Below are positions 1 through 11,293 of a stretch of DNA of 64,000 bases, piece by piece. The notes under the pieces are model-generated. The model saw nothing but the letters and a program-made list of their open reading frames with translations, did no database searches and had not been told where the DNA came from. Numbering within the stretch: the first letter of the stretch is position 1; the number at the start of each line of letters is the position of its first letter. The DNA is from Candidatus Hydrogenedentota bacterium (lineage in GTDB: Bacteria > Hydrogenedentota > Hydrogenedentia > Hydrogenedentales > SLHB01): the NCBI GenBank assembly GCA_963745075.1, contig CAVUWV010000019.1, forward strand, positions 1 through 64,000, read 5' to 3'. Position numbers and translations under genes: made by a program.

Positions 1-1165
1 GCGGTTTGAAATCGCGCTACGAGCAACATCACGCGATTACGTAACGGATACGGCATTGCGGGCCGCGGCGGAACTGGCCGCGAAACACATTAACGATCGC
101 TTCCTGCCGGACAAGGCCATCGACGTGATTGACGAAGCGGGCGCGAGCGTGCGGCTGCAATCGGGCACCGCGCGAAAGACGATCCGGCCAGCGGATATCG
201 AGCGCATCGTGGCCGAAATCGCCCGTATCCCCGCGCGGAGCGTGTCGTCGTCGGACAAGGCCCAGTTGGGCACGCTCGAAGAAGAACTCCAGCGCGTCGT
301 TTTCGGGCAGGACGAGGCCATTCACGCCGTGTCGACGGCGATCAAACGGTCGCGCGCGGGGCTCGGCAACGAGGAACGGCCTACGGGCTGCTTCTTGTTT
401 ACCGGGCCGACCGGCGTGGGCAAGACTGAAGTGGCGCGCCAACTCGCTGCCATCATGGGCGTGCACTTCGCGCGCTACGACATGAGCGAGTATATGGAGA
501 AGCACACGGTGGCGCGGTTGATCGGCGCCCCGCCGGGATATGTGGGCTTCGACCAGGGCGGACTGTTGACCGATGAAATTCGCCGGAACCCCTACTGCGT
601 CCTGTTGCTCGACGAGATTGAGAAGGCGCACCCGGACCTCTTCAACATCCTGCTCCAGGTGATGGACCACGCGACCTTGACGGACAACAACGGCAAGAAG
701 GCCGATTTCCGGAACGTGGTGCTGATCATGACGTCTAACGCGGGCGCCCGCGAGATGGCGTCGCAGAGCATCGGCTTCGGCGCATCCGAGCATGACCCTG
801 CGAGCAAGGGCCTGAAGGCGATCGAAAAGGCCTTCGCGCCGGAGTTCCGCAACCGGCTCGACGCGATCGTGTCGTTTCATTCCCTGTCGCCGGACGTCAT
901 CAAGAAGGTCGTCGACAAGTTCGTCGGTGAGTTGCAAGGCCGACTGGCGGCGCGCAAGGTCAGTCTTGCCGTCACCGACGCCACCCGCAACTGGCTTGCC
1001 GAGCATGGATTCGACAAGAGTTTCGGCGCGCGCCCCCTCGGCCGGTTGATGCAAACCGAGATCCGGGATGCCCTCGCGGATGAAATGCTCTTCGGCCGGC
1101 TCGAAAAGGGCGGCAAGGTTTTAGTGGATGTGAAGGATGGGAAGCTGGTGTTTGAATTCCCGTAG
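1..1165 (+). CDS. clpA: ATP-dependent Clp protease ATP-binding subunit ClpA, 5'-truncated by window edge; 1-nt frameshift near 43
   Basis: RFLPDKAIDVIDEAGA, second Walker A GPTGVGKT, DMSEYMEKHTVARLIGAPPGYVG, LLLDEIEKAHPD, FGARPL; no long M-domain between the AAA modules; upstream frame reads GLKSRYEQHHAIT then shifts; followed by aat. Confidence 0.93.
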   Translation, partial: RFEIALRATSRDYVTDTALRAAAELAAKHINDRFLPDKAIDVIDEAGASVRLQSGTARKTIRPADIERIVAEIARIPARSVSSSDKAQLGTLEEELQRVVFGQDEAIHAVSTAIKRSRAGLGNEERPTGCFLFTGPTGVGKTEVARQLAAIMGVHFARYDMSEYMEKHTVARLIGAPPGYVGFDQGGLLTDEIRRNPYCVLLLDEIEKAHPDLFNILLQVMDHATLTDNNGKKADFRNVVLIMTSNAGAREMASQSIGFGASEHDPASKGLKAIEKAFAPEFRNRLDAIVSFHSLSPDVIKKVVDKFVGELQGRLAARKVSLAVTDATRNWLAEHGFDKSFGARPLGRLMQTEIRDALADEMLFGRLEKGGKVLVDVKDGKLVFEFP

Positions 1166-1169
1166 AGAC

Positions 1170-1491
1170 AAATCCAAAATCCGAATCTCGAATCCCGAAA
1201 CAAATTCAAAATCTGAAATTCAAAACAAACGCCGGCGGTCCGACTTGACTGAATCTGCGGGTTAGATAACCCTAGTCACGGTGGCCAAGGTAGACGCGGC
1301 TTCCAGCCGCGTTGATTCTTCAGACTACTGCCACGGACAACAAAGAACTACCGCGGCTGGAAGCCGCGTCTACGCTATTGCAGTGCCAGATTGTTCACTC
1401 CGTTCAGAATGACTTCCAGCGAATGTTTGGGACGTTTGAGCTTTGGTCATTCGAATTTGTTTCGGATTTCAAGATTAGGATTTCGAGTTTT
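1170..1491. repeat. AT-rich ~7-nt-periodic inverted-repeat element (AAATCC.. / ..GGATTT) enclosing a REP doublet
   Basis: CCGAAACAAATTC (1195-1207) is the exact reverse complement of GAATTTGTTTCGG (1453-1465); related half-arms at ~12498-12565 and ~21621-21665. Confidence 0.7.
1290..1373. repeat. GTAG-type REP doublet (REPIN-like)
   Basis: GTAGACGCGGCTTCCAGCCGCG (1290-1311) and its perfect 22-bp reverse complement (1352-1373); each arm is itself a hairpin preceded by GTAG. Confidence 0.8.
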
Positions 1492-1536
1492 GATCGTGGT
1501 GTCCAGCCAAAAGCATTCAATCCCGTTGACCGATCG

Positions 1537-2229
1537 ATGCCGCTATTTCGCCTGAGCGAGGACCTCGTTTTTCCGCCGCCCCAATTTGCTCTGGAGGACG
1601 GGCTGCTTGCCGTGGGCGGCGATCTTTCCGTGGACCGGCTCCTGCTCGCGTACCAGACCGGCATCTTTCCCTGGTACTCGGAGGGCGATCCACTGTTATG
1701 GTGGTCGCCGGATCCGCGGATGGTGCTATTCCCCGAGGAACTGCATGTCTCCCGCCGTCTCCAACGGGTGTTGAAGAAAGGCGAATTCGAGATTACCCTC
1801 GACACGGCCTTCGACCGGGTAATTCATGCCTGCGGTGAAATACGGGGACCCGGCCGGGATGGGACCTGGATCACGCCGGACATGGAGGAGGCGTACTGCG
1901 CGCTCCACGAGGCGGGTTACGCCCATTCCGTCGAAGCTTGGAAGGATGGTGATCTGGCCGGCGGCCTCTACGGGGTTTCCCTGGGCGCCTGTTTCTTCGG
2001 CGAATCCATGTTTACTCACGTGCCCAACGCCAGCAAGGCGGCGTTTGCGCGATTCGTGCAGCAGTTGACGGCGTGGGACTTCTCGCTCATCGATTGCCAG
2101 ATGCACACGCCGCACCTGGCCCGGTTCGGCGCGCGCGAGATCCCGCGAAAACGGTTCTTGGGACTGCTGCGCGAGGGGTTGAACGCGAAGACGCGAAAGG
2201 AGCGTTGGCGATTCGAGGGAGTGGAGTGA
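1537..2229 (+). CDS. aat: Leucyl/phenylalanyl-tRNA--protein transferase
   Basis: GLLAVGGDLS, AYQTGIFPW, LLWWSPDPR, AHSVEAW, GGLYGV, FFGESMF, LIDCQ; ATG at 1537; next to clpA. Confidence 0.95.
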   Translation: MPLFRLSEDLVFPPPQFALEDGLLAVGGDLSVDRLLLAYQTGIFPWYSEGDPLLWWSPDPRMVLFPEELHVSRRLQRVLKKGEFEITLDTAFDRVIHACGEIRGPGRDGTWITPDMEEAYCALHEAGYAHSVEAWKDGDLAGGLYGVSLGACFFGESMFTHVPNASKAAFARFVQQLTAWDFSLIDCQMHTPHLARFGAREIPRKRFLGLLREGLNAKTRKERWRFEGVE

Positions 2230-2469
2230 GTCACTAACCAGCAGGGACGAAGAGAATACATGTGACTACACATCGTACCTCCGGACTCCCGTCTGACTTT
2301 TCCGTTTTCGTTCGACGCGCGATATAATGCGAGGTTAATGGGTGCATGCGCATAAAGACATTAACGGGAAAGGGGGCGGGGTGCATCCGTCGAGTTGGCG
2401 CGTCGGGGGGACGCGCAGATTACTAGAATCTTCGCCCCATGCAGCAAAAAAACGCTGGAAAGGACAGAA

Positions 2470-3670
2470 ATGTTTAACGCACTCGAGATGGCGCCGCCCG
2501 ATCCGATTCTCGGGCTCATCGAAGCTTTTAAGAAGGACCCGAACCCCGCGAAGATTAATCTGAGCATCGGCGTGTATCGTGACGGAAAGAATACGACGCC
2601 GGTGCTGGACTGTGTGAAGCGCGCGGAGGAGAAGATTCTGGCCTCCGAGAACGTCCAAGAACTACGTGAGCCCCAACAGCGGCGCGGTGGACTATGCCGC
2701 GGCGGTCCAGGAATTGCTCTTCGGAGCGGACCACGAGATCGTGACCAGCAAACGCGCGGTGACGGCCCATACGCCGGGCGGCACCGGTGCGTTGCGGGTA
2801 ACGGGCGATTTCATGCGGACGCTGCTCGGGGCGAAACGGATTTGGCTGAGCGAACCCACGTGGCCGAACCATCCGAACGTGTTTCAGGCCGCGGGGTTGG
2901 AACTCGCCACCTATCCCTATTACGACGCGGCGAAGAAAGCGCTCGATTTCGGGCCCATGCTCGACGCGCTCAAGAAGGTGCCCAACGGCGAGTTTGTCCT
3001 GCTGCATGGATGCTGCCACAACCCCACCGGGATGGATCCGACGCCGGAACAGTGGAAGGCCATCGCGGAGGTTTCGGCCAAGCAGGGCTGGATGCCGGTC
3101 TTCGATTTTGCGTACCAAGGGTTGGCCGATGGGATCCGGGAAGATGCGACTGGGCTTTCGCAGTTCCTTGGCGCTGGGAAGGAATTGATGATCTGCTCGT
3201 CCTTCTCCAAGAACTTCGGGATGTACAACGAGCGGGTCGGCGCGTTGACGGTGGTTGGCGAGTCTGCGACCGCGGCCGAAAAGGCGCTGAGCCATCTCAA
3301 AGCCGTGATCCGAACCAACTACTCGAATCCACCGGCCCACGGTTCCCAGATTGTCGTAACGGTGTTGAATGATACCGAGTTACGCAAACTGTGGGAGAGC
3401 GAAGTCAAAGGCATGCGCGACCGCATCGCGGGGATGCGCCAGCTCTTCGTGGATACCCTGAAGGCTAATGGCGTGAAACAGGATTTCTCGTTCCTGACGA
3501 CGCAGAAGGGGATGTTCTCGTTCTCCGGTCTGAACAAGGAACAGGTCGCGCAGCTACGCGACAAGCATGCCGTGTACATCGTCGGGTCCGGACGCATCAA
3601 CGTGGCCGGGATGACCGAAGACAACATGGATGCGCTTTGCACGGCGATAGCCTCGGTGTTGGAGCGGTAA
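2470..3670 (+). CDS. aspC: Aspartate/aromatic amino acid aminotransferase (class I), frameshift at ~2650
   Basis: PPDPILGL, KINLSIGVYRD in one frame; TPGGTGAL, LHGCCHNPTG, FDFAYQG, SFSKNFGMYNERVG (PLP Lys), SGRINVAG in the next frame. Confidence 0.92.
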
Positions 3671-3742
3671 GCGACGCGAACCTTTGACGGCCAACTCGTA
3701 ACTGGCTCTCGATGCTTCAATTACGAGAACGATTGCGAAACA

Positions 3743-3783
3743 AAAATAAGAGCGCCTCGCGGGAAGCGGGGCGCTCTTATTTC
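3743..3783. terminator. Bidirectional intrinsic terminator (aspC on +, putative ncRNA on -)
   Basis: AAAAATAAGAGCGCC-tcgcgggaagcgg-GGCGCTCTTATTT; T-tracts on both strands, longer on minus. Confidence 0.8.
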
Positions 3784-4085
3784 ATCTGCTTGAGCCTCAT
3801 TGAGGCCGAAGCGCGTCGGGACAGGCGTTGCATTGCTCTAATCCGTCTCCGAAAGGAGGAAACGCGTAGGAGGCGCTAAAAGACGGCAGGCTCGAATCAC
3901 CGCAATACCCGTTGAATGACTTCAAATGCATCGATCCGTGGTCCTTGGCAGAAACATTGCACCAGATTCACCAGCGCGAATGGCTACGCAGCGAATCAAT
4001 GTCTCTCCAACTTGCACCGAAGTGGGCATCTCGCGATAGGCCGCCTGTCCCGACGGCTTCTACCCGAACGCAGCCTCACTACATT
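3745..4085 (-). ncRNA. Putative orphan structured non-coding RNA (~300-340 nt), family not recognised
   Basis: 14-bp perfect closing helix 3814-3827/4042-4055, internal helices with G-U pairs only on minus strand, cUUCGg loop, upstream sigma70-like promoter, downstream terminator, no convincing ORF. Confidence 0.6.
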
Positions 4086-4092
4086 CGACCGT

Positions 4093-4121
4093 AGGATAGC
4101 ATATCGGGGGGCCGTTGTCTC
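4093..4121 (-). promoter_or_regulatory. Sigma70-like promoter for the putative ncRNA
   Basis: Minus strand GAGACA (4121-4116), 17-bp spacer ending in TGc, TATCCT (4098-4093): extended -10. Confidence 0.5.
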
Positions 4122-4500
4122 GCCCTTTTTTCGAGATTTCGTAAGCCTTTGAGCGGTGGTAAGTTCCGGTAATTGGGGTGTTTTTTCGCGTCAAAACGAA
4201 TGATCCGAAACATGGGTAACATATTTATTAATAACGTCTTATAGCGAATGTGCAAACCAAAACTTCGCCGCAATGCCTTTTCGCCGAAATCTTACGACTA
4301 AGATGATCGCGGGATTGTGTAAATAGTTAATCGACAGGTGGATAAAGAGACCATGTTCGGGTGTCGTCAGGCATAGAATCGGGTGCTCCCCCGGTTCTGT
4401 AGGAACCGTTCGTCGCGGGCAAGATGCCCCTGAGCGGGGACCTCTATCGAGGTTGTTGGAACCAAGAACAGTCGCAAATGGTTGAAACGTACATTACTCT

Positions 4501-4582
4501 CGAAATCGGGTTCGGTATCGGGATCGAAGTGGGATGCGCGAAGTGCTTTCGATCCCGATCCCGATTTCGATCCAGATTTCGA
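4501..4582. repeat. Hexamer-periodic palindromic element (ATCGGG)n/(CCCGAT)n
   Basis: CGAAATCGGGTTCGGTATCGGGATCGAA...TTCGATCCCGATCCCGATTTCG, downstream of a minus-strand gene. Confidence 0.7.
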
Positions 4583-4669
4583 CTATGTCAAACCACCGCT
4601 AATGATACAAAACGACTTACGGGAGCCTGTTCTAGGAGTTCCGCCAAGCCCTCCAGTCCAACGAACTCG

Positions 4670-7396
4670 CTACTGAAGTTTCAGCGTCGCCGCCAGCGCG
4701 CGAAGTTCGTTCATCCAATCCTCGTTGGATGGCGCAATCGGGAACCGGCGGCCGCGGACCCAATCGCCCTGGATGTGGTATACGAACGGTTCGCCGCGTT
4801 TGATAGAAACCACAACCTGATTCGCACTTGGCGATTCGCCGACGCGCAGGAATCGGTTGGGCGGGAACATCACGCCCAGACCGATGGTGCCGACGTTGGA
4901 CGTTTGGTACCCGCGTACGGCCATAACCCCCGCTTCCTGATCGAGCATGTAGAACGGTTGTTCCGTGAGGCGGGTCAGGTTGATGCCGAGTTCCACGGTG
5001 TCCTCCGGTTTGCCGCCCTCCACGAGGACTTCCACCTCCACGTCGTTGCGGTCCGCGATGAGCGTGAATCGGAGCCGTACGGTGTAGCCGCTGCCGTCGG
5101 GTCCCGCATTGGAAGCGCGGGTTTCAATCACGACCTTGTCGTTGGTCTGCTCGACGAGCTGGTTTTCAAACGTCGCAAACCCTTTGCCCTGCGGACTCCA
5201 CACGGGATACCGCTCGCCGTTGATGTAGAGGGTCACCCCGCCGCAACCGGCCGTATCGCGCACGTATAACGCGTCCACGCCCCAGTCGCCGGTCTGTTGG
5301 TCGCCGTCGAGTTGGTTCAGGATGAACCCGTCGCGGCTCTTGCCGTAGAAGTCGACCTGGCCCCAATAGCAGCGGTACGCGATAGTCTCGTTTTCCCACC
5401 CGATATGGTCGGATATCCAGTCCTTAAGATAAGCGACCCGGGGGTAATCGTTGACTTCGGCGCGCTTAGCGCCAATCCACTCGCCGTAAGTGGGCGGCGC
5501 GTCGTTCAGTCCGTACGCCTGCTCCAACTGCATCTGCATGGCGCCGAGGTCGCCGCGGCTGCGGGCTTCGTTGAACGCGGGCCAAAACGCCGCATCCGGT
5601 GCCGCCCCTTTGAGTTGCAGGATCAGGCGGTCCTTGAGAATGTCGAGGTAGAACCGGATGGACTCGTCGCTGTTCAGGAGTTTTCGCCGTAACTCGGCGT
5701 CGATGGCCGGTGCGCGCAGATTGTTCCGGAGCAACTGGGCCACGGGGTCGCCGTTGGGATCGGAACCGGCCGCGGTGAGCGCCTGCTCAAGGCGATGCGT
5801 CAGACAGAGGAGCGATTGGGGTACCGAAGCCAGGATTTCTTTTTGTGCCGCGCTGACGTCGGCCCAGGCCCACGGTATGTCGCGCGTTTCCACATCCTTG
5901 GCGGTCCAGGTGTCGTCGACGGTGCCGTCGGCGTTTGCATCAAAATTCCACGTGTCGATAACGCCGTCGCCGTCGGAATCGACATACGTGTATTTCATGT
6001 CCGCGCTGTGGTCTTGATCCGCGTCCACGTCAAGCCAGGCCCGCTGTGCGCCGCGCAGGTGGATGCGCTGATCGACGGGGTCGAGGTAGACCTGAATGGG
6101 GTGGCCGGGTTGTAGCGCCAACTCGTTACGTTTATTGACCGGACCGCAACTGGGACCGCCGACTTGGGGGAAATCTTCCGTACCGTTGGCGATGACGCCT
6201 TCCCACCGCTCATGGGTATCGGCGTAGCGCTGGCCGTCCACGTTGTTGTCGTCTTCGTCCCATGTGAGCAGCATTCGATCCCAGACTACCGGCACGCCGA
6301 CGGTCTGACCTGGTTCGTACGCGAGGAAGGGATCCGTCGGAATGCCGCGAAGCTGGATCGTTTCGAGAGCGTCCGAGGCCGGGGTCACACCGTTTTCGGG
6401 GGGATAGGCCGTGATGGAGACATCGTAATCGCGCGGTTGTTTGGGAGTCGCGTCGTCGTCCGCGTCGAAGCTGTGACGGTAGTTGCTAATCGCCGTGCCT
6501 TCCGCATCGTGGCGAATTACTTCCTCGGTCACGCCGTCGTCGTCGAGGTCGTAGAAGAGGAAGGGATTTTCCCACTGGGGCCGCCACGTGGTGGCCCCGG
6601 GGTCGAGCACAAAGGCGCAAAACATTTCCTTGCCACCGAAATGCGAGTTGTATTGGCACAAGGGCTGGCGGTAGGTGTAGCCCACGTCGTACCAGAGCAG
6701 GTTGTCGTCGCCCACGTCGCGGCCCCACCACACGACGACAGAGCCCTCGCCCCCGAACGATGCCGTCCCGGGGAAATACAGACCCATCTCATCAACGTCG
6801 TTGTCGCCGTCCACGTCGGTATAGTCGAGGACCGCGTCCACGGTCCCGTCGCCATGCCAGTCCGCGATGTACAAATCGCTGTCGTGGTCGGGTTGACCGT
6901 CCTCCTGGAGATCGCCGTCCTCATCGATGGCTCGCACGAGGAGCGGTTGCCATTCGACGGGATGACGGGGCGCCGTGTCGACGAACCAGACTTCGTCGGC
7001 GTTGCCGTCGCCGTCGTGGTCGACGTAATGCCGCTCGCCGGGTTCCGCCGCGAGAACTTTCTCCCGCATGGCGGAATCGAGCACTGCCTTGTCGCCGAAG
7101 ACGCGCTCAAGAGGATTTGCCGGCGCCGCGGCTTGGATCGGCTCCGGTAGGACCGCAGGGATTTCGGGTATGGCGGCGGGCGTTTCGAGCACGTCTTTCG
7201 GAACGTCCGGCATGGGCGCAGGAATACCATGCCCCTCGTTCGGCAGGTCGGACGCAGCCGGTGTTTTGGTAGCCGGAGCCCCTTCCTTTGCAATCGCTTG
7301 ATTGGCGGGGTCTGTGACGGCCGGAGTGTCTTGCGCTGCGGCAAGAACGCACGTTAGAACAGCCGCGATTGCGGCCCAAAACCCGAAGTGCTTCAT
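4670..7396 (-). CDS. Large secreted protein with many DxDxDG-type Ca-binding loops and a C-terminal DUF4861-like domain
   Basis: Signal peptide MKHFGFWAAIAAVLTCVLAAAQ, Pro/Ala linker, DHDGDG/DVDGDND/DSDGDG loops, HIGWENETIAYRCY..VDFYGK resembles DUF4861. Confidence 0.7.
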   Translation of the reverse strand: MKHFGFWAAIAAVLTCVLAAAQDTPAVTDPANQAIAKEGAPATKTPAASDLPNEGHGIPAPMPDVPKDVLETPAAIPEIPAVLPEPIQAAAPANPLERVFGDKAVLDSAMREKVLAAEPGERHYVDHDGDGNADEVWFVDTAPRHPVEWQPLLVRAIDEDGDLQEDGQPDHDSDLYIADWHGDGTVDAVLDYTDVDGDNDVDEMGLYFPGTASFGGEGSVVVWWGRDVGDDNLLWYDVGYTYRQPLCQYNSHFGGKEMFCAFVLDPGATTWRPQWENPFLFYDLDDDGVTEEVIRHDAEGTAISNYRHSFDADDDATPKQPRDYDVSITAYPPENGVTPASDALETIQLRGIPTDPFLAYEPGQTVGVPVVWDRMLLTWDEDDNNVDGQRYADTHERWEGVIANGTEDFPQVGGPSCGPVNKRNELALQPGHPIQVYLDPVDQRIHLRGAQRAWLDVDADQDHSADMKYTYVDSDGDGVIDTWNFDANADGTVDDTWTAKDVETRDIPWAWADVSAAQKEILASVPQSLLCLTHRLEQALTAAGSDPNGDPVAQLLRNNLRAPAIDAELRRKLLNSDESIRFYLDILKDRLILQLKGAAPDAAFWPAFNEARSRGDLGAMQMQLEQAYGLNDAPPTYGEWIGAKRAEVNDYPRVAYLKDWISDHIGWENETIAYRCYWGQVDFYGKSRDGFILNQLDGDQQTGDWGVDALYVRDTAGCGGVTLYINGERYPVWSPQGKGFATFENQLVEQTNDKVVIETRASNAGPDGSGYTVRLRFTLIADRNDVEVEVLVEGGKPEDTVELGINLTRLTEQPFYMLDQEAGVMAVRGYQTSNVGTIGLGVMFPPNRFLRVGESPSANQVVVSIKRGEPFVYHIQGDWVRGRRFPIAPSNEDWMNELRALAATLKLQ

Positions 7397-7648
7397 ATCA
7401 CGAGTTCTCCCAAAGAATGCAATTGATCCTGCTGTCCCGTACCGCGACACATGAAGGCAAACGCGTGCGGGGCGTGTTATATTACATGTTTTTGGGGCAT
7501 CGCGCATTCTTCGGGCTCTGTACCCCGTGGACATTATGGATGTGATAGACCGCGCAAACACTGTGCCTCGCCGCAAGCGCTATGGTAGGATTCGAGTCGC
7601 GGTGGTGTCTTGGGTTTCGGGGTTCGGAAACGCCTTGTAGGGGAATGC

Positions 7649-9940
7649 ATGGCCCAACAGACGGTATCCGGCAGTTCGCGCGAATGGAGGGAAGGCGACG
7701 TCCTTCTCGGTATCTATGAGGTTCGGCGTCTCATTGCCAAGGGCGGAATGGGCTACGTTTATCTGGTCCATCACCGCGGCTGGGACATGGAATTGGCGGT
7801 CAAGCGTCCCAAAGAGGAAGTGGTCGCCAGCGAAAAAGGCGCGCGCCTCTTCGAGCAGGAATGCGAAACGTGGGTGAATCTCGGTCTTCACCCCAATATC
7901 GCGAGCTGCTACTACGTCCGTCGCATTGAGGGCATCCCCCACGTGTTCGCTGAATTTGTCAACGGCGGCACGCTGTCGTCTTGGATTCACAATCGGATTC
8001 TGTACCGCGGCGATGTGGCGTTAAAGCGGATCTTCGACGTGGCGCTTCAGTTTGCCTGGGGGCTACGCTATGCCCACGCACAGAATCTCTTGCACCAGGA
8101 CGTCAAACCGCTCAACGTCTTGATGACCAAAGACGGTCTCGCCAAGGTGACCGACTTCGGCCTGTCCCGCGCCATGACGTTGGCGTCTGCGGAGGCCGGC
8201 GTGCGCGCGCATCGCGGGATCGGATCACGCGGGACCCCCGTCTATTGCTCGCCGGAACAGGCCCATCGCCGCAACCTCACGTTCGCCACCGACATCTGGA
8301 GTTGGGCCGTGTCCGTTCTCGAAATGTTCGTCGGCGATGTGACTTGGATGGCGGGGCAGTCCGCGGGCCAGGCCTTGGAACAGTACCAGGTGCTGGGTCC
8401 CGAGTTTGACGATATCCCGGAGATGCCCCCGGGGTTGATTGACCTGCTTCGCCGCTGTTTCAAGGAGGACCCGGCGGACCGGCCATCGAGCATGCACGAG
8501 GTCATCGACGCGTTGATGGCGGTCTATCAGCACGAACTTCGGGAACCCTATTTTCGGGAGCCGCCGGAAGCGGAAGAGACCTCGGCGGATCGCCTGAACA
8601 ACCGGGCCGTTTCGCTGGTCGACCTGGGGAAGAAACAGGAGGCCCGCGAGACCTGGGAGCGGGCGCTACGCATCGAGCCCGGACACATCGAGACCACCTA
8701 CAACTACATGGTCCAGTCCTGGCGCGACGGATCGGCCACGGACAAGACGGTGGTCCGGGCCGTGAAAAAGTTGTGGCGGAAAAATCCGAAGTCGTGGACG
8801 CCGGTGTACATGCTGGCCCAGGTGCAAATGGAACGGGGCGACTACGCCCTCGCGCAGGAACTGCTCAAGCGCTTGACGGCCCGGCGTATCGAAGGGCACG
8901 AAGTGCGCACCGCGGTGGATGAGGCGGAGTTGCGCGCACTGGAGTCCCGGCGGCTGATCAGAACCTTCGGATCGCACGAGGGCGCGATCACGGCGGTTTG
9001 CCTGAGCTGGGACGGGCAACTGGCGCTCTCCGCCGATGCGCCGAAAGGCGGGGGCGGTCCCTTGTCCGTTTGGAATGTTGAGACAGGGGAACGAGTCCAC
9101 CGGCTCGAAGGCCACCGTGCTGCGATATCCTCGGTTGCGCTGGCAGCGGACGGCGCCCGCGCCGCGACGGGGTCGCTGGATCGCAGTGCGCGCGTGTGGA
9201 ATCTCGTGACGGGGGAATGTGAGCACACGTTCAAAGTTCACACCAATGCCATAACCGCCGTGCGATTCACGGATGAAGGTCGCGGAATACTGACTGGAAG
9301 CGCCGACGGGACCATCTGCTGGTGGGATCTCGTAGACGGGAAGCTGCGAACGACCTTTGCGGGCCATGCGGGATCGGTGACGGCGATTTGCCCGGGCGTT
9401 CCGGGGCAGTCGTTCTTTTCCGCCAGTCAGGACCGGACCCTGCGCCAGTGGGAACTGAATACGGGCCGTTGTCTGAATGTGGAAAGTGACTATACCGAAA
9501 CGCTGTTGAGTCTCGCCGTCAGCGACAACCGGCGCTACGTGCTGGGCGGAACGGCGGACGGATGCATCGAGTTGTACGACGTGAGCGCATCGAAGAAGAT
9601 GGGACGCCGCAAAGCGCACAGCGAGCCGATCACGTCGATCGCGTTGGGCAAACGCGGCGAATTCGCTTTGACCGCCGTGCAGGGTGGAAAGCTCCGCATG
9701 TGGCAAATGGCTGCGAATCGTTGCTTACACACCTTTCCCGGCATGGCGCCCATCGCCCTGCGCGGCGACGGCGACGTGTGCCTGTCCGCCGGGCCGGAGG
9801 GCGTGTTGCACTTGTGGCACGTGGGGTTCCGGAGCGCGGTGATCTTTGCGCCGATGCTCCTGTGCCAATCCTACGAGGCCGATGACGACGGTGGCGATTC
9901 GACCCCGGGAGACGAACCGGGTCCGCCGGATGCGGATTAG
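7649..9940 (+). CDS. Hanks-type Ser/Thr protein kinase with TPR and WD40 repeats
   Basis: KGGMGYVY, LAVK, HQDVKPLN, VTDFG, YCSPEQ, DIWSW; TPR helix NNRAVSLVDLGK..A; WD40 units GHRAAISSVA..ATGSLDRSARVWN, TGSADGTICWWD. Confidence 0.9.
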   Translation: MAQQTVSGSSREWREGDVLLGIYEVRRLIAKGGMGYVYLVHHRGWDMELAVKRPKEEVVASEKGARLFEQECETWVNLGLHPNIASCYYVRRIEGIPHVFAEFVNGGTLSSWIHNRILYRGDVALKRIFDVALQFAWGLRYAHAQNLLHQDVKPLNVLMTKDGLAKVTDFGLSRAMTLASAEAGVRAHRGIGSRGTPVYCSPEQAHRRNLTFATDIWSWAVSVLEMFVGDVTWMAGQSAGQALEQYQVLGPEFDDIPEMPPGLIDLLRRCFKEDPADRPSSMHEVIDALMAVYQHELREPYFREPPEAEETSADRLNNRAVSLVDLGKKQEARETWERALRIEPGHIETTYNYMVQSWRDGSATDKTVVRAVKKLWRKNPKSWTPVYMLAQVQMERGDYALAQELLKRLTARRIEGHEVRTAVDEAELRALESRRLIRTFGSHEGAITAVCLSWDGQLALSADAPKGGGGPLSVWNVETGERVHRLEGHRAAISSVALAADGARAATGSLDRSARVWNLVTGECEHTFKVHTNAITAVRFTDEGRGILTGSADGTICWWDLVDGKLRTTFAGHAGSVTAICPGVPGQSFFSASQDRTLRQWELNTGRCLNVESDYTETLLSLAVSDNRRYVLGGTADGCIELYDVSASKKMGRRKAHSEPITSIALGKRGEFALTAVQGGKLRMWQMAANRCLHTFPGMAPIALRGDGDVCLSAGPEGVLHLWHVGFRSAVIFAPMLLCQSYEADDDGGDSTPGDEPGPPDAD

Positions 9941-11293
9941 TCAGAATGCTGTCCGCGACATTTTCGCCGGTTCGCTCTTGTGATCTGCACGATGTGCTTC
10001 CCTTTCCATCCCGTTCCGCTCTTTATCGCTGACCGGGAGACGACGAAGATCGGTTCCGTCAATACGCACGGTCCACAGTTCGTAGTGGTCGCGTTCCGCG
10101 CTGAGGCGTTTCTTGACCCGGAAGACAAGCCGGGTCCCGTCCGGAGAAAAGACAGGTTCATCGATGCGGCACTGCATCGTGACGATGGTACTGGTCTGGT
10201 CGGATTCCGTCCGGGCGACGTGCAGACGAGACTCGCAGCCCTCATCATCAAAACGGACGCACTTGGCAAAGGCCACGCGGCTCCCATCTCGCGAGAACTG
10301 GCAAACGGCGCATTGCCCCAATTCCTCGATCCATTTTCCAACCGGCGTCTCGCGTACCCCGCTGGCGCGTAACTTGCCTACCGCGTCGCGATCGCACAAA
10401 ACCAAGTTCCCGGCGTAGCTCGTGATAACCGGCTGATCCGCAGTCGCCCGAACGGCCCAATGTTGGTTGCCATCATGCTCCCCGGCGATCCTTGTGAGAC
10501 CGTCACCGCTGCGTGAAACGGAATACAAACTACGACGATCCCAGGAGGAATCGTAATCTGGTCCCCATTTGGGCGCTTGTTTCAAGCGGGCGAACAGGAT
10601 AGCGTCGCCATCGGGCAGAAACGCGGGCCCTACGTCGTAGCCGTCTTTACCCGACGTGACGTTCTGGACGGTCCCACCACCGGGGGAGACCAGCGCGACG
10701 TGCGCCATCGTCTTGTCGTCGCGGCGTGTAAACGCAATCGCGTCGCCGGTCGGTGAGAACTGAGGCGCCCAGTCCTCGTAGTCGCCTTCCGTTACCGGGG
10801 TGAGTTTGCCGGTGCCGAAGGCTAGGTTGAACAAGTTGCATTGCGTCTTTCCGGTGCGCGACGCGAACACGATGGACTGGCCGTCGGGTGCGTAGACAGG
10901 GTCAAAATCGAAGCGGTCGCCATCGGTGAGTTGTTTGCTCAGCGACCCGTCCAGCGGCACCCGATACAGGTTCATTCTTTTCCGTTGCTGATACGCGACG
11001 ACAATTTCATCTCCCCCCGGGGCAAAGGCTACAGCCTTCGTCCCCGTATCTCCGGGCAAGCCTTCCACTGCGTAATACAGTGGAAGGAATGGAATCGAAG
11101 CGATATAAAACGGCGCCATCAGCAAGATTCCGGTCCAGATAAACGCGGCGATCGGTAAATAGCAGATGGTTTCGCAGCCGGTGAACAGGGCGATCAGGAA
11201 GCCCGCAATCGCCACGCGGCTGCGACGGAAGCGAGGGCTATTATGTTTGGATATATATTGTTGATATATTAACTGTTGGAATCGCATTCGCAT
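9941..11293 (-). CDS. TolB-like PD40 beta-propeller, probable lipoprotein/membrane-anchored
   Basis: Repeated P.(F/Y)(S/A)PDG..I.F units (PVYAPDG, PQFSPTG, PVFSPDG); lipobox-like LFTGC; RBS AGGAGG before ATG. Confidence 0.8.
   Translation of the reverse strand: MRMRFQQLIYQQYISKHNSPRFRRSRVAIAGFLIALFTGCETICYLPIAAFIWTGILLMAPFYIASIPFLPLYYAVEGLPGDTGTKAVAFAPGGDEIVVAYQQRKRMNLYRVPLDGSLSKQLTDGDRFDFDPVYAPDGQSIVFASRTGKTQCNLFNLAFGTGKLTPVTEGDYEDWAPQFSPTGDAIAFTRRDDKTMAHVALVSPGGGTVQNVTSGKDGYDVGPAFLPDGDAILFARLKQAPKWGPDYDSSWDRRSLYSVSRSGDGLTRIAGEHDGNQHWAVRATADQPVITSYAGNLVLCDRDAVGKLRASGVRETPVGKWIEELGQCAVCQFSRDGSRVAFAKCVRFDDEGCESRLHVARTESDQTSTIVTMQCRIDEPVFSPDGTRLVFRVKKRLSAERDHYELWTVRIDGTDLRRLPVSDKERNGMEREAHRADHKSEPAKMSRTAF

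Follow-up and report, generated by a model that had tools for sequence, protein, structure and literature searches.

A structured RNA gene of an uncatalogued family in Hydrogenedentota and its candidate lipoprotein target

The stretch of DNA analysed here (the window; 64,000 nucleotides of contig CAVUWV010000019.1 from a Candidatus Hydrogenedentota bacterium) carries on its minus strand a real, single-copy, stand-alone structured non-coding RNA (ncRNA) gene of an uncatalogued family. Judging from its sequence, the RNA is likely to belong to the base-pairing small RNA (sRNA) kind as its functional class. The reading that is favoured, with moderate confidence, is that of a trans-encoded antisense RNA repressing a single gene, which encodes a predicted lipoprotein and lies upstream of mutL. 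If this reading is true, a regulatory RNA in an uncultured phylum gains a named and directly testable target, and an unannotated lipoprotein family is flagged as worth tight control.

The RNA locus and its fold

The features of the locus are collected in Table 1. Much of what a first-pass annotation had read from the letters is present, including the promoter-like site on the minus strand, a 14-bp closing helix (4055-4042 with 3827-3814) with its GAAGC/GCUUC extension, the long arm, CCGUCU/AGACGG, two CCUCCU tracts and the terminator hairpin. The promoter words AGAC and T(A/G)TG(C/G)TA are kept in all 14 homologues of the ncRNA, and we infer a start site near 4087; a consensus promoter scan called 0 sites, the ncRNA promoter having 8 of the 9 matches needed. 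A comparable terminator hairpin, when homologues were judged by eye, was evident only in six genomes of the source genus. The assignment to the minus strand also holds: without the terminator this strand reaches z -3.6, with none of 200 shuffles folding as well, whereas the plus strand reaches z -0.45 (66 of 200 as good), and all seven homologues tested fold better on the minus strand. No open reading frame (ORF) with a Shine-Dalgarno (SD) sequence is common to the homologues, in agreement with the earlier remark that the transcript holds no credible ORF.

Table 1. Features of the ncRNA locus, in window coordinates.
Feature	Position	Strand	Basis or remark
Structured ncRNA body, ~285 nt	3804..4087	-	covariance-model match; z -3.6; sequencing-run contigs inside 3815-4063
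Promoter-like site GAGACA-17 nt-extended TG.TATCCT	4093..4121	-	sequence; word conservation in homologues
P1, 5' hairpin	4065..4087	-	82% of cells paired; two-sided change in 5/8 pairs
P2 5' strand, closing helix	4042..4060	-	covariation; sequence
P2 3' strand, closing helix	3808..3827	-	covariation; sequence
Domain A: long P3/P4/P5 arm and side hairpin	3899..4037	-	most two-sided changes fall here
Tip loop GCCAUUC, domain A	3978..3984	-	identical in 13/14 homologues; deleted in G021
Bulge (U/A)GGUGCA, domain A	3958..3964	-	kept in 13/14; replaced in G021, where the tip loop is also lost
Domain B: P7 (3886-3878 with 3850-3842) around both anti-SD tracts	3842..3886	-	alignment; sequence
Hairpin P8 with tract 1, loop CUCCUAC	3861..3877	-	96% of cells paired; one-sided changes only
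Tract 2, GCGUUUCCUCCUUU	3852..3865	-	invariant in 14/14; predicted seed
Intrinsic-terminator hairpin, U-rich tail on each side, between the ncRNA and convergent aspC	3742..3781	.	sequence
Convergent aminotransferase gene, aspC-like, main reading frame	2666..3670	+	syntenic neighbour

In the source genome (G000) the ncRNA is followed by the terminator and the convergent gene; among the homologues the promoter is conserved and the neighbours vary. The link between the RNA and aspC is one of synteny. The aspC-like gene is split over two frames (window ~2470-3670, plus strand), its N-terminus MFNALEM... being off-frame from the main 334-aa ORF; its homologues are intact ORFs of 398-406 aa, and the split is either an assembly error or a recent frameshift. 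Upstream of the ncRNA stands a DUF4861 gene, downstream of which, at 4500-4582, lies a palindromic repeat of (TCGAAA/TCGGGA)-type units with similar DNA in contigs of other organisms. For at least five homologues in other genera, the upstream neighbour is a divergent gene of the ribonucleotide-reductase small-chain family (PF00268), found in G012, G015, G119, G122 and, in part, G124. In these genomes it lies ~250-340 nt upstream of the ncRNA, and in G012 it encodes 299 aa (L165:2087-2986); such a gene may encode an R2-like oxidase.

The fold begins with the P1 hairpin, after which the closing helix P2 holds domains A and B, domain A making up ~140 nt or about half of the molecule. In a plain MAFFT alignment of the homologues, two-sided changes occur in 27 of 71 pairs (shuffles 14.0 +/- 2.6, none of 500 as high), and the paired cells amount to 84%, compared with 36-46% in slid controls; since the structure was drawn from one aligned sequence and the sequences are related, these figures serve as support and not as probabilities. 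A model-fitted alignment, which is biased towards the structure, raises the count to 32 pairs. Covariation says little on P7 because this helix is mostly invariant. Three small hairpins described earlier did not survive the alignment: of the 14 homologues, six have AUC-GCGA-GAU intact, six have CAC-UUCG-GUG and a single one has UUGAA-GUCA-UUCAA, and the strands concerned form the long covarying helices P3/P4 instead. Both anti-SD tracts (CCUCCUAC and CCUCCUUU) are predicted to be largely unpaired in most homologues, tract 1 being altered in G021. The pyrimidine strand UCCUCCUUUY is predicted to be unpaired inside P7, and within the full RNA the cost of opening is ~1 kcal/mol for UCCUCCUUUC and 4.8 kcal/mol for the whole 14-nt tract 2.

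Family identity, expression and distribution

An Rfam 15 scan of window positions 1-10000 returned three matches at E 0.18-0.49, none overlapping the ncRNA, so that no covariance model matches it. The first-pass annotation had seen no signature of RNase P, tmRNA or SRP RNA; its view stands, and these RNAs were located on other contigs of the source genome, the small SRP RNA (RF00169, 60.4 bits) at C8:30781 and tmRNA and an RNase P motif elsewhere. Canonical 6S RNA (RF00013, 61.7 bits) has its only match in the genome at G000:C21:117505-117690. Among the openly available listings of a literature search on the phylum name and RNA terms, no description of the ncRNA was found, though a candidate list in a supplement could hold it.

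Across 8 of 8 sequencing runs, the coverage by contigs of close relatives is confined to 3815-4063; the runs were found using this stretch, their contigs report presence and carry no strand, ends or level, and uncovered stretches are not evidence of silence. Four were salt-marsh RNA runs, possibly of one campaign, compared over 1.8 kb, and the other four, two of them flagged as probably DNA, were compared over 20 kb. Other coverage of the 20 kb consists mostly of short partial pieces of other organisms, chiefly over clpA among the pieces listed. The features expected of an sRNA gene, namely its own promoter (as read from conservation), a non-coding body and expression, are found together here. 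The earlier proposal of an undescribed, independently transcribed structured ncRNA is supported by the Rfam result, the conserved promoter, the covarying helices and the contigs from RNA libraries.

The ncRNA is present in 14 of 135 Hydrogenedentota genomes, all within four genera of a single family. Of 60 relatives searched by blastn, eight gave homologues, and one short unrelated match also came up; a core pattern with at most one mismatch extended the set to the 14 genomes across the phylum. A covariance model built from these 14 scores them at 131-294 bits, the next best score in the phylum being 17.9 bits; it detected no homologue beyond the 14 among 13 candidates scored per genome, and a deeper look at five genomes and at the aspC flanks of 21 loci gave no further ncRNA. 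The homologues and covariation to which the first-pass annotation had looked for support are both in place. The core pattern was also run against 185,579 species genomes, metagenomes and viral contigs, with matches judged by eye, and no homologue outside the 14 was found: the 13 genome matches comprised 11 known homologues and two unrelated sequences, the five metagenome matches comprised two copies of known homologues and three unrelated sequences, and all 12 matches in viral contigs were unrelated. Each of the 14 genomes has a single copy, and in 12 of them ncRNA and aspC share a contig. Because 13 of the 14 RNA-positive genomes form, together with G035, one clade in the aspC tree, co-occurrence of the RNA with its candidate target mostly reflects shared descent and is not independent evidence.

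The candidate target upstream of mutL

The complement of tract 2 precedes an ATG at G000:C14:240089-240102, the gene starting at G000:C14:240105 and being unlinked to the ncRNA. A phylum-wide pattern search found the word AAGGAGGAAACG(C/T)ACATG in 10 RNA-positive genomes out of 14, and among the matches listed it did not occur in the other 121; these 10 sites, in g1 and g11, match by construction because the target was found there by the complementary pattern. All 10 belong to orthologues of one gene (nine with a complete ORF, 132-138 aa long, and a tenth truncated by a contig end), which lies upstream of mutL in G000, G003, G015 and G021, with tandem copies in between in G015. The hydrophobic N-terminus of the protein ends in VGC, which we take to be a lipobox, and the product is a predicted lipoprotein. 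A beta-sandwich is predicted for it (pLDDT 75.6); searches gave no Pfam match and no PDB match at E<=0.001, the best Atlas match (0.90) was to unnamed clusters, and its named homologues are all Hydrogenedentes hypothetical proteins.

A profile search (E<=1.1e-20) located the gene in 15 of 135 genomes, namely 12 RNA-positive genomes and G123, G028 and G035. In G001 the gene is cut at a contig end with the pairing site intact, and in G002 the syntenic contig stops 2.6 kb before the gene, which is an assembly gap. The ncRNA locus of G123 is probably unassembled, as its aspC contig ends inside aspC.

Several results point to this gene as the partner of tract 2. It ranks first of 6,800 candidate ATG starts of G000 by longest perfect complement (14 nt) and first of 1,018 when the opening costs of the full RNA and the mRNA are included; the 1,018 were taken from 1,165 candidates, the remaining 147 being the weakest by raw duplex energy. 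The rank depends on the scoring: cofolding with the isolated 49-nt domain B places the target 460th of 1,165, with a histone-like gene first, and raw duplex energy over 24,660 candidate starts places it 20th in a list in which GC-rich noise prevails. All 13 RNA-positive genomes with the gene region assembled retain the site. As an out-of-sample check, the gene was found by protein homology in G012, G124 and G021, and in each the first copy pairs over 13 nt. Overall, first copies pair over 13-14 nt, with G-U allowed, at -18.7 to -25.4 kcal/mol (12 genomes, with the same site in G001), compared with 6-12 nt and -10.6 to -20.6 kcal/mol for 16 in-genus duplicates; the ranges overlap, the duplicate G119_2 (-20.6) scoring better than the first copy of G021 (-18.7). 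Duplicates cluster within their genus in the protein tree (support 99/99 and 100/99), from which it follows that the site was lost separately in two genera, in younger copies, yet persisted in one copy through the divergence of the genera. Tandem arrays of two to six copies occur in these two genera, independently by the protein tree (G012:C121:16400-20000; G124:C553; G123:C275; G015:C41; G119:C119; G122:C685).

The start region itself is well conserved. Over the 17 nt before the start, four cross-genus comparisons with G003 gave 15, 17, 15 and 12 identical positions, and the maxima among 17 ribosomal-operon genes were 14, 14, 13 and 13, so that the target exceeds all 17 in three of the four comparisons and two of the 17 are higher in the fourth. 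The ribosomal set comprises 29 rows minus 11 in the opposite frame and one with a mis-picked start, and the gene labels of these rows are our assumption. The second-best site in G000 (13 nt) belongs to the histone-like gene and has drifted in 3 of 3 congeners found, for which reason this gene was rejected as a second target; a search with its protein, a low-complexity query, gave no matches in five other genomes. The ORF in question (G000:C27:44834; L246:835-1146) encodes 104 aa, rich in Lys and Ala with KKPAAKKK repeats and without a Pfam match, and, in G000 alone, 18 nt are common to its leader and that of the lipoprotein gene.

Sequence comparison and energy models together indicate what is expected of a base-pairing sRNA, a conserved and accessible seed complementary to an unlinked start region. 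The first-pass annotation had suggested an SD-targeting regulator, and this reading is supported: for tract 2 there is a specific candidate target, backed by the complement and the ranks, while tract 1 has no supported partner. A second register, pairing tract 1 with the leader GUAGGGUGC, was rejected (p 0.04-0.93; cognate pairs no better than non-cognate). The domain A tip loop was likewise discarded as an anti-AUG element, as GAAUGGC occurs at 17 of 1,679 starts, six of which are one repeated element, and is absent from the target. These six are copies of one 472-537-aa ORF with identical upstream DNA (G000 C1:139820, C8:21406, C10:504490, C14:72543, C15:176078 and C24:205053), probably an insertion sequence. 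Tract 1 is also complementary to the sense strand over the presumed -10 of the target (GCGTAGGA..GGCGC in G119, CATCTGTGGTAT in G021; compared in G119 and the other g11 promoters, L184, L181, L180 and L183, and in G021, L177), likely by chance since those bases are probably untranscribed.

Other observations weigh against the pairing or limit it. Close homologues of the gene in G028 and G035 carry a site that pairs over 14 nt with wobbles, and no ncRNA was found in these genomes (84% and 76% complete, respectively) by the covariance model, in the aspC flanks or in the deeper search; an exact tract-2 match in G028 proved to be another gene's ribosome-binding site. The distant homologue in G044 pairs over 16 nt with wobbles, only five of them Watson-Crick. 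Folding of 13 leaders predicts a GUGC/GCAC stem in six of them, and this stem of the leader's own can explain part of the site conservation without an RNA partner. Tract 2 is invariant, the one exception being a C/U position immediately 3' of the tract, so that RNA and target show no true compensatory change, and changes in the target site are wobble-compatible or a 1-nt bulge.

Beyond the complementarity, we infer every step of the mechanism. The strand UCCUCCUUUY, unpaired in P7, would nucleate on the A/G-rich SD sequence shown in the loop of the leader GUGC/GCAC stem, and with P8 opened the duplex would grow into GCGUU to a length of 14 bp, stopping three bases short of the AUG. This would keep the 30S subunit off the mRNA and lower lipoprotein synthesis. 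For all 14 bp to form on a closed-loop strand, P7 probably has to breathe; otherwise pairing may stay partial. No match to PF01423 or PF17209 (Hfq) was found in G000, which is 90% complete, and for this reason the closed scaffold probably supplies stability and presentation itself.

Alternative readings and related systems

The repressor model leaves domain A unaccounted for, and this conserved, unexplained half of the molecule leaves room for a second activity. It is conceivable, if doubtful, that the ncRNA is mainly a protein-binding decoy or scaffold acting through the tip loop and bulge of domain A, the leader being conserved for its own hairpin or for that protein, which possibly also reads the lipoprotein leader, and not for pairing. 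Such a reading would suit the size of the domain and the retention of GCCAUUC and (U/A)GGUGCA in 13 of 14 homologues. Bulge and target leader have the same-sense word GGUGCA in common in g1, g8 and G121, and in G021 both read UUGGGAC (7 nt, which 16 of 1,165 G000 leaders match as well); moreover, G028 and G035, in which no ncRNA was found, still have the leader motif. The shared word is, however, a post hoc one, 6 nt of the G000 bulge recur in 78 of 1,165 leaders, and in G119, G120 and G122 bulge and leader share only 4-5 nt. Furthermore, the exact complementarity of the most invariant unpaired strand to the SD region would go unexplained.

That the ncRNA is instead a broad anti-SD regulator in the manner of cuckoo/NfeR1 or RNAIII, whose two redundant CCUCCU seeds act on many mRNAs with the lipoprotein gene as one of them or as a chance best match, is considered unlikely. 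The predicted openness of both tracts would fit, as would the several G000 genes predicted to bind at -12 to -16 kcal/mol, and NfeR1 is a precedent in which redundant aSD loops act on several mRNAs (PMC10746234). Against this, generic SD pairing has no need of the invariant GCGUUU beyond the aSD, the second-best site is seen to drift among congeners, and tract 1, altered in G021, lacks a supported partner.

A combination of functions, in which domain B would clamp the ribosome-binding site of the lipoprotein mRNA and domain A would mimic the leader motif (GGUGCA; UUGGGAC in G021) to capture or hand over a leader-reading protein, is regarded as rather improbable. If true, the RNA would be a silencer that works without a chaperone, pairing with its target and mimicking it as well.

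The other class named by the first-pass annotation, an RNA-polymerase-binding 6S/Ms1 analogue, is very unlikely, as is a divergent housekeeping RNA. Stable, abundant RNAs tend to be well covered in sequencing runs, and the ncRNA, with its closed 5'-3' stem, is the only well-covered feature of the 20 kb in the runs compared. Nevertheless, no Rfam model matches the ncRNA, the genome has its 6S, small SRP RNA, tmRNA and RNase P motif at other loci, only 14 of 135 genomes carry the ncRNA, and it is branched and lacks a central bubble in a rod. A mobile-element remnant (MITE), whose scattered copies had been named earlier as a condition against a functional RNA, or a cis-regulatory leader is largely refuted by copy number and synteny, for although the ends are inverted repeats and in G015 and G119 the ncRNA precedes a long same-strand ORF, each of the 14 genomes has a single copy, the aspC contig is shared in 12 of 14, a terminator and convergent gene come after the ncRNA in G000, and the promoter is conserved while the neighbours change.

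Among known systems, 6S RNA (RF00013) and Ms1 are stand-alone, structured RNAs with paired ends; the ncRNA resembles them in these respects and differs in matching no Rfam model. RNAIII is a large, multi-domain RNA with many targets that encodes a peptide and is under quorum control. The ncRNA is likewise large and multi-domain, with C-rich unpaired seeds against ribosome-binding sites, but it has no Rfam match and no shared ORF. RNAIII of Staphylococcus aureus is reported to present UCCC in three hairpin loops (PMC4615179).

The cuckoo/CcsR/alpha-r14 RNAs (NfeR1) of Alphaproteobacteria are reported to carry repeated unpaired anti-SD motifs (PMC4615179, PMC10746234), with NfeR1 occluding ribosome-binding sites independently of Hfq (PMC10746234) and cuckoo RNAs consisting of 2-4 adjacent hairpins, each with CCUCCUCCC, and no multiloops (PMC4615179). 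The ncRNA too has more than one unpaired anti-SD motif; unlike them, it is 285 nt long, branched with a closing helix and without CCUCCUCCC, and its main tract lies on an internal-loop strand with a 14-nt match to one gene. MicL of E. coli is a trans-acting RNA dedicated to one lipoprotein mRNA, whose translation it blocks; sigmaE drives its expression, it originates inside cutC, and it works together with Hfq (PMC4102768). A single lipoprotein mRNA is the predicted target here as well, with no homology implied, whereas the promoter-like site of the ncRNA is of the housekeeping type, its fold is closed and multi-domain, the search for Hfq in G000 found none, and its candidate target is an unrelated protein predicted as a beta-sandwich. 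If the repressor reading is true, a large, closed, multi-domain RNA would serve as a single-target translational repressor in a genome where no Hfq was found, converging on the MicL-Lpp logic.

The 3' untranslated region of the lipoprotein gene carries CGCGTTTCGTCCCT (G000:C14:240519-240560; L114 ~3520-3560) in four genomes of the source genus and lacks it in g11. This element resembles tract 2 and is partly complementary to the gene's own SD region, and a 5'-3' fold-back of the lipoprotein mRNA is possible through it.
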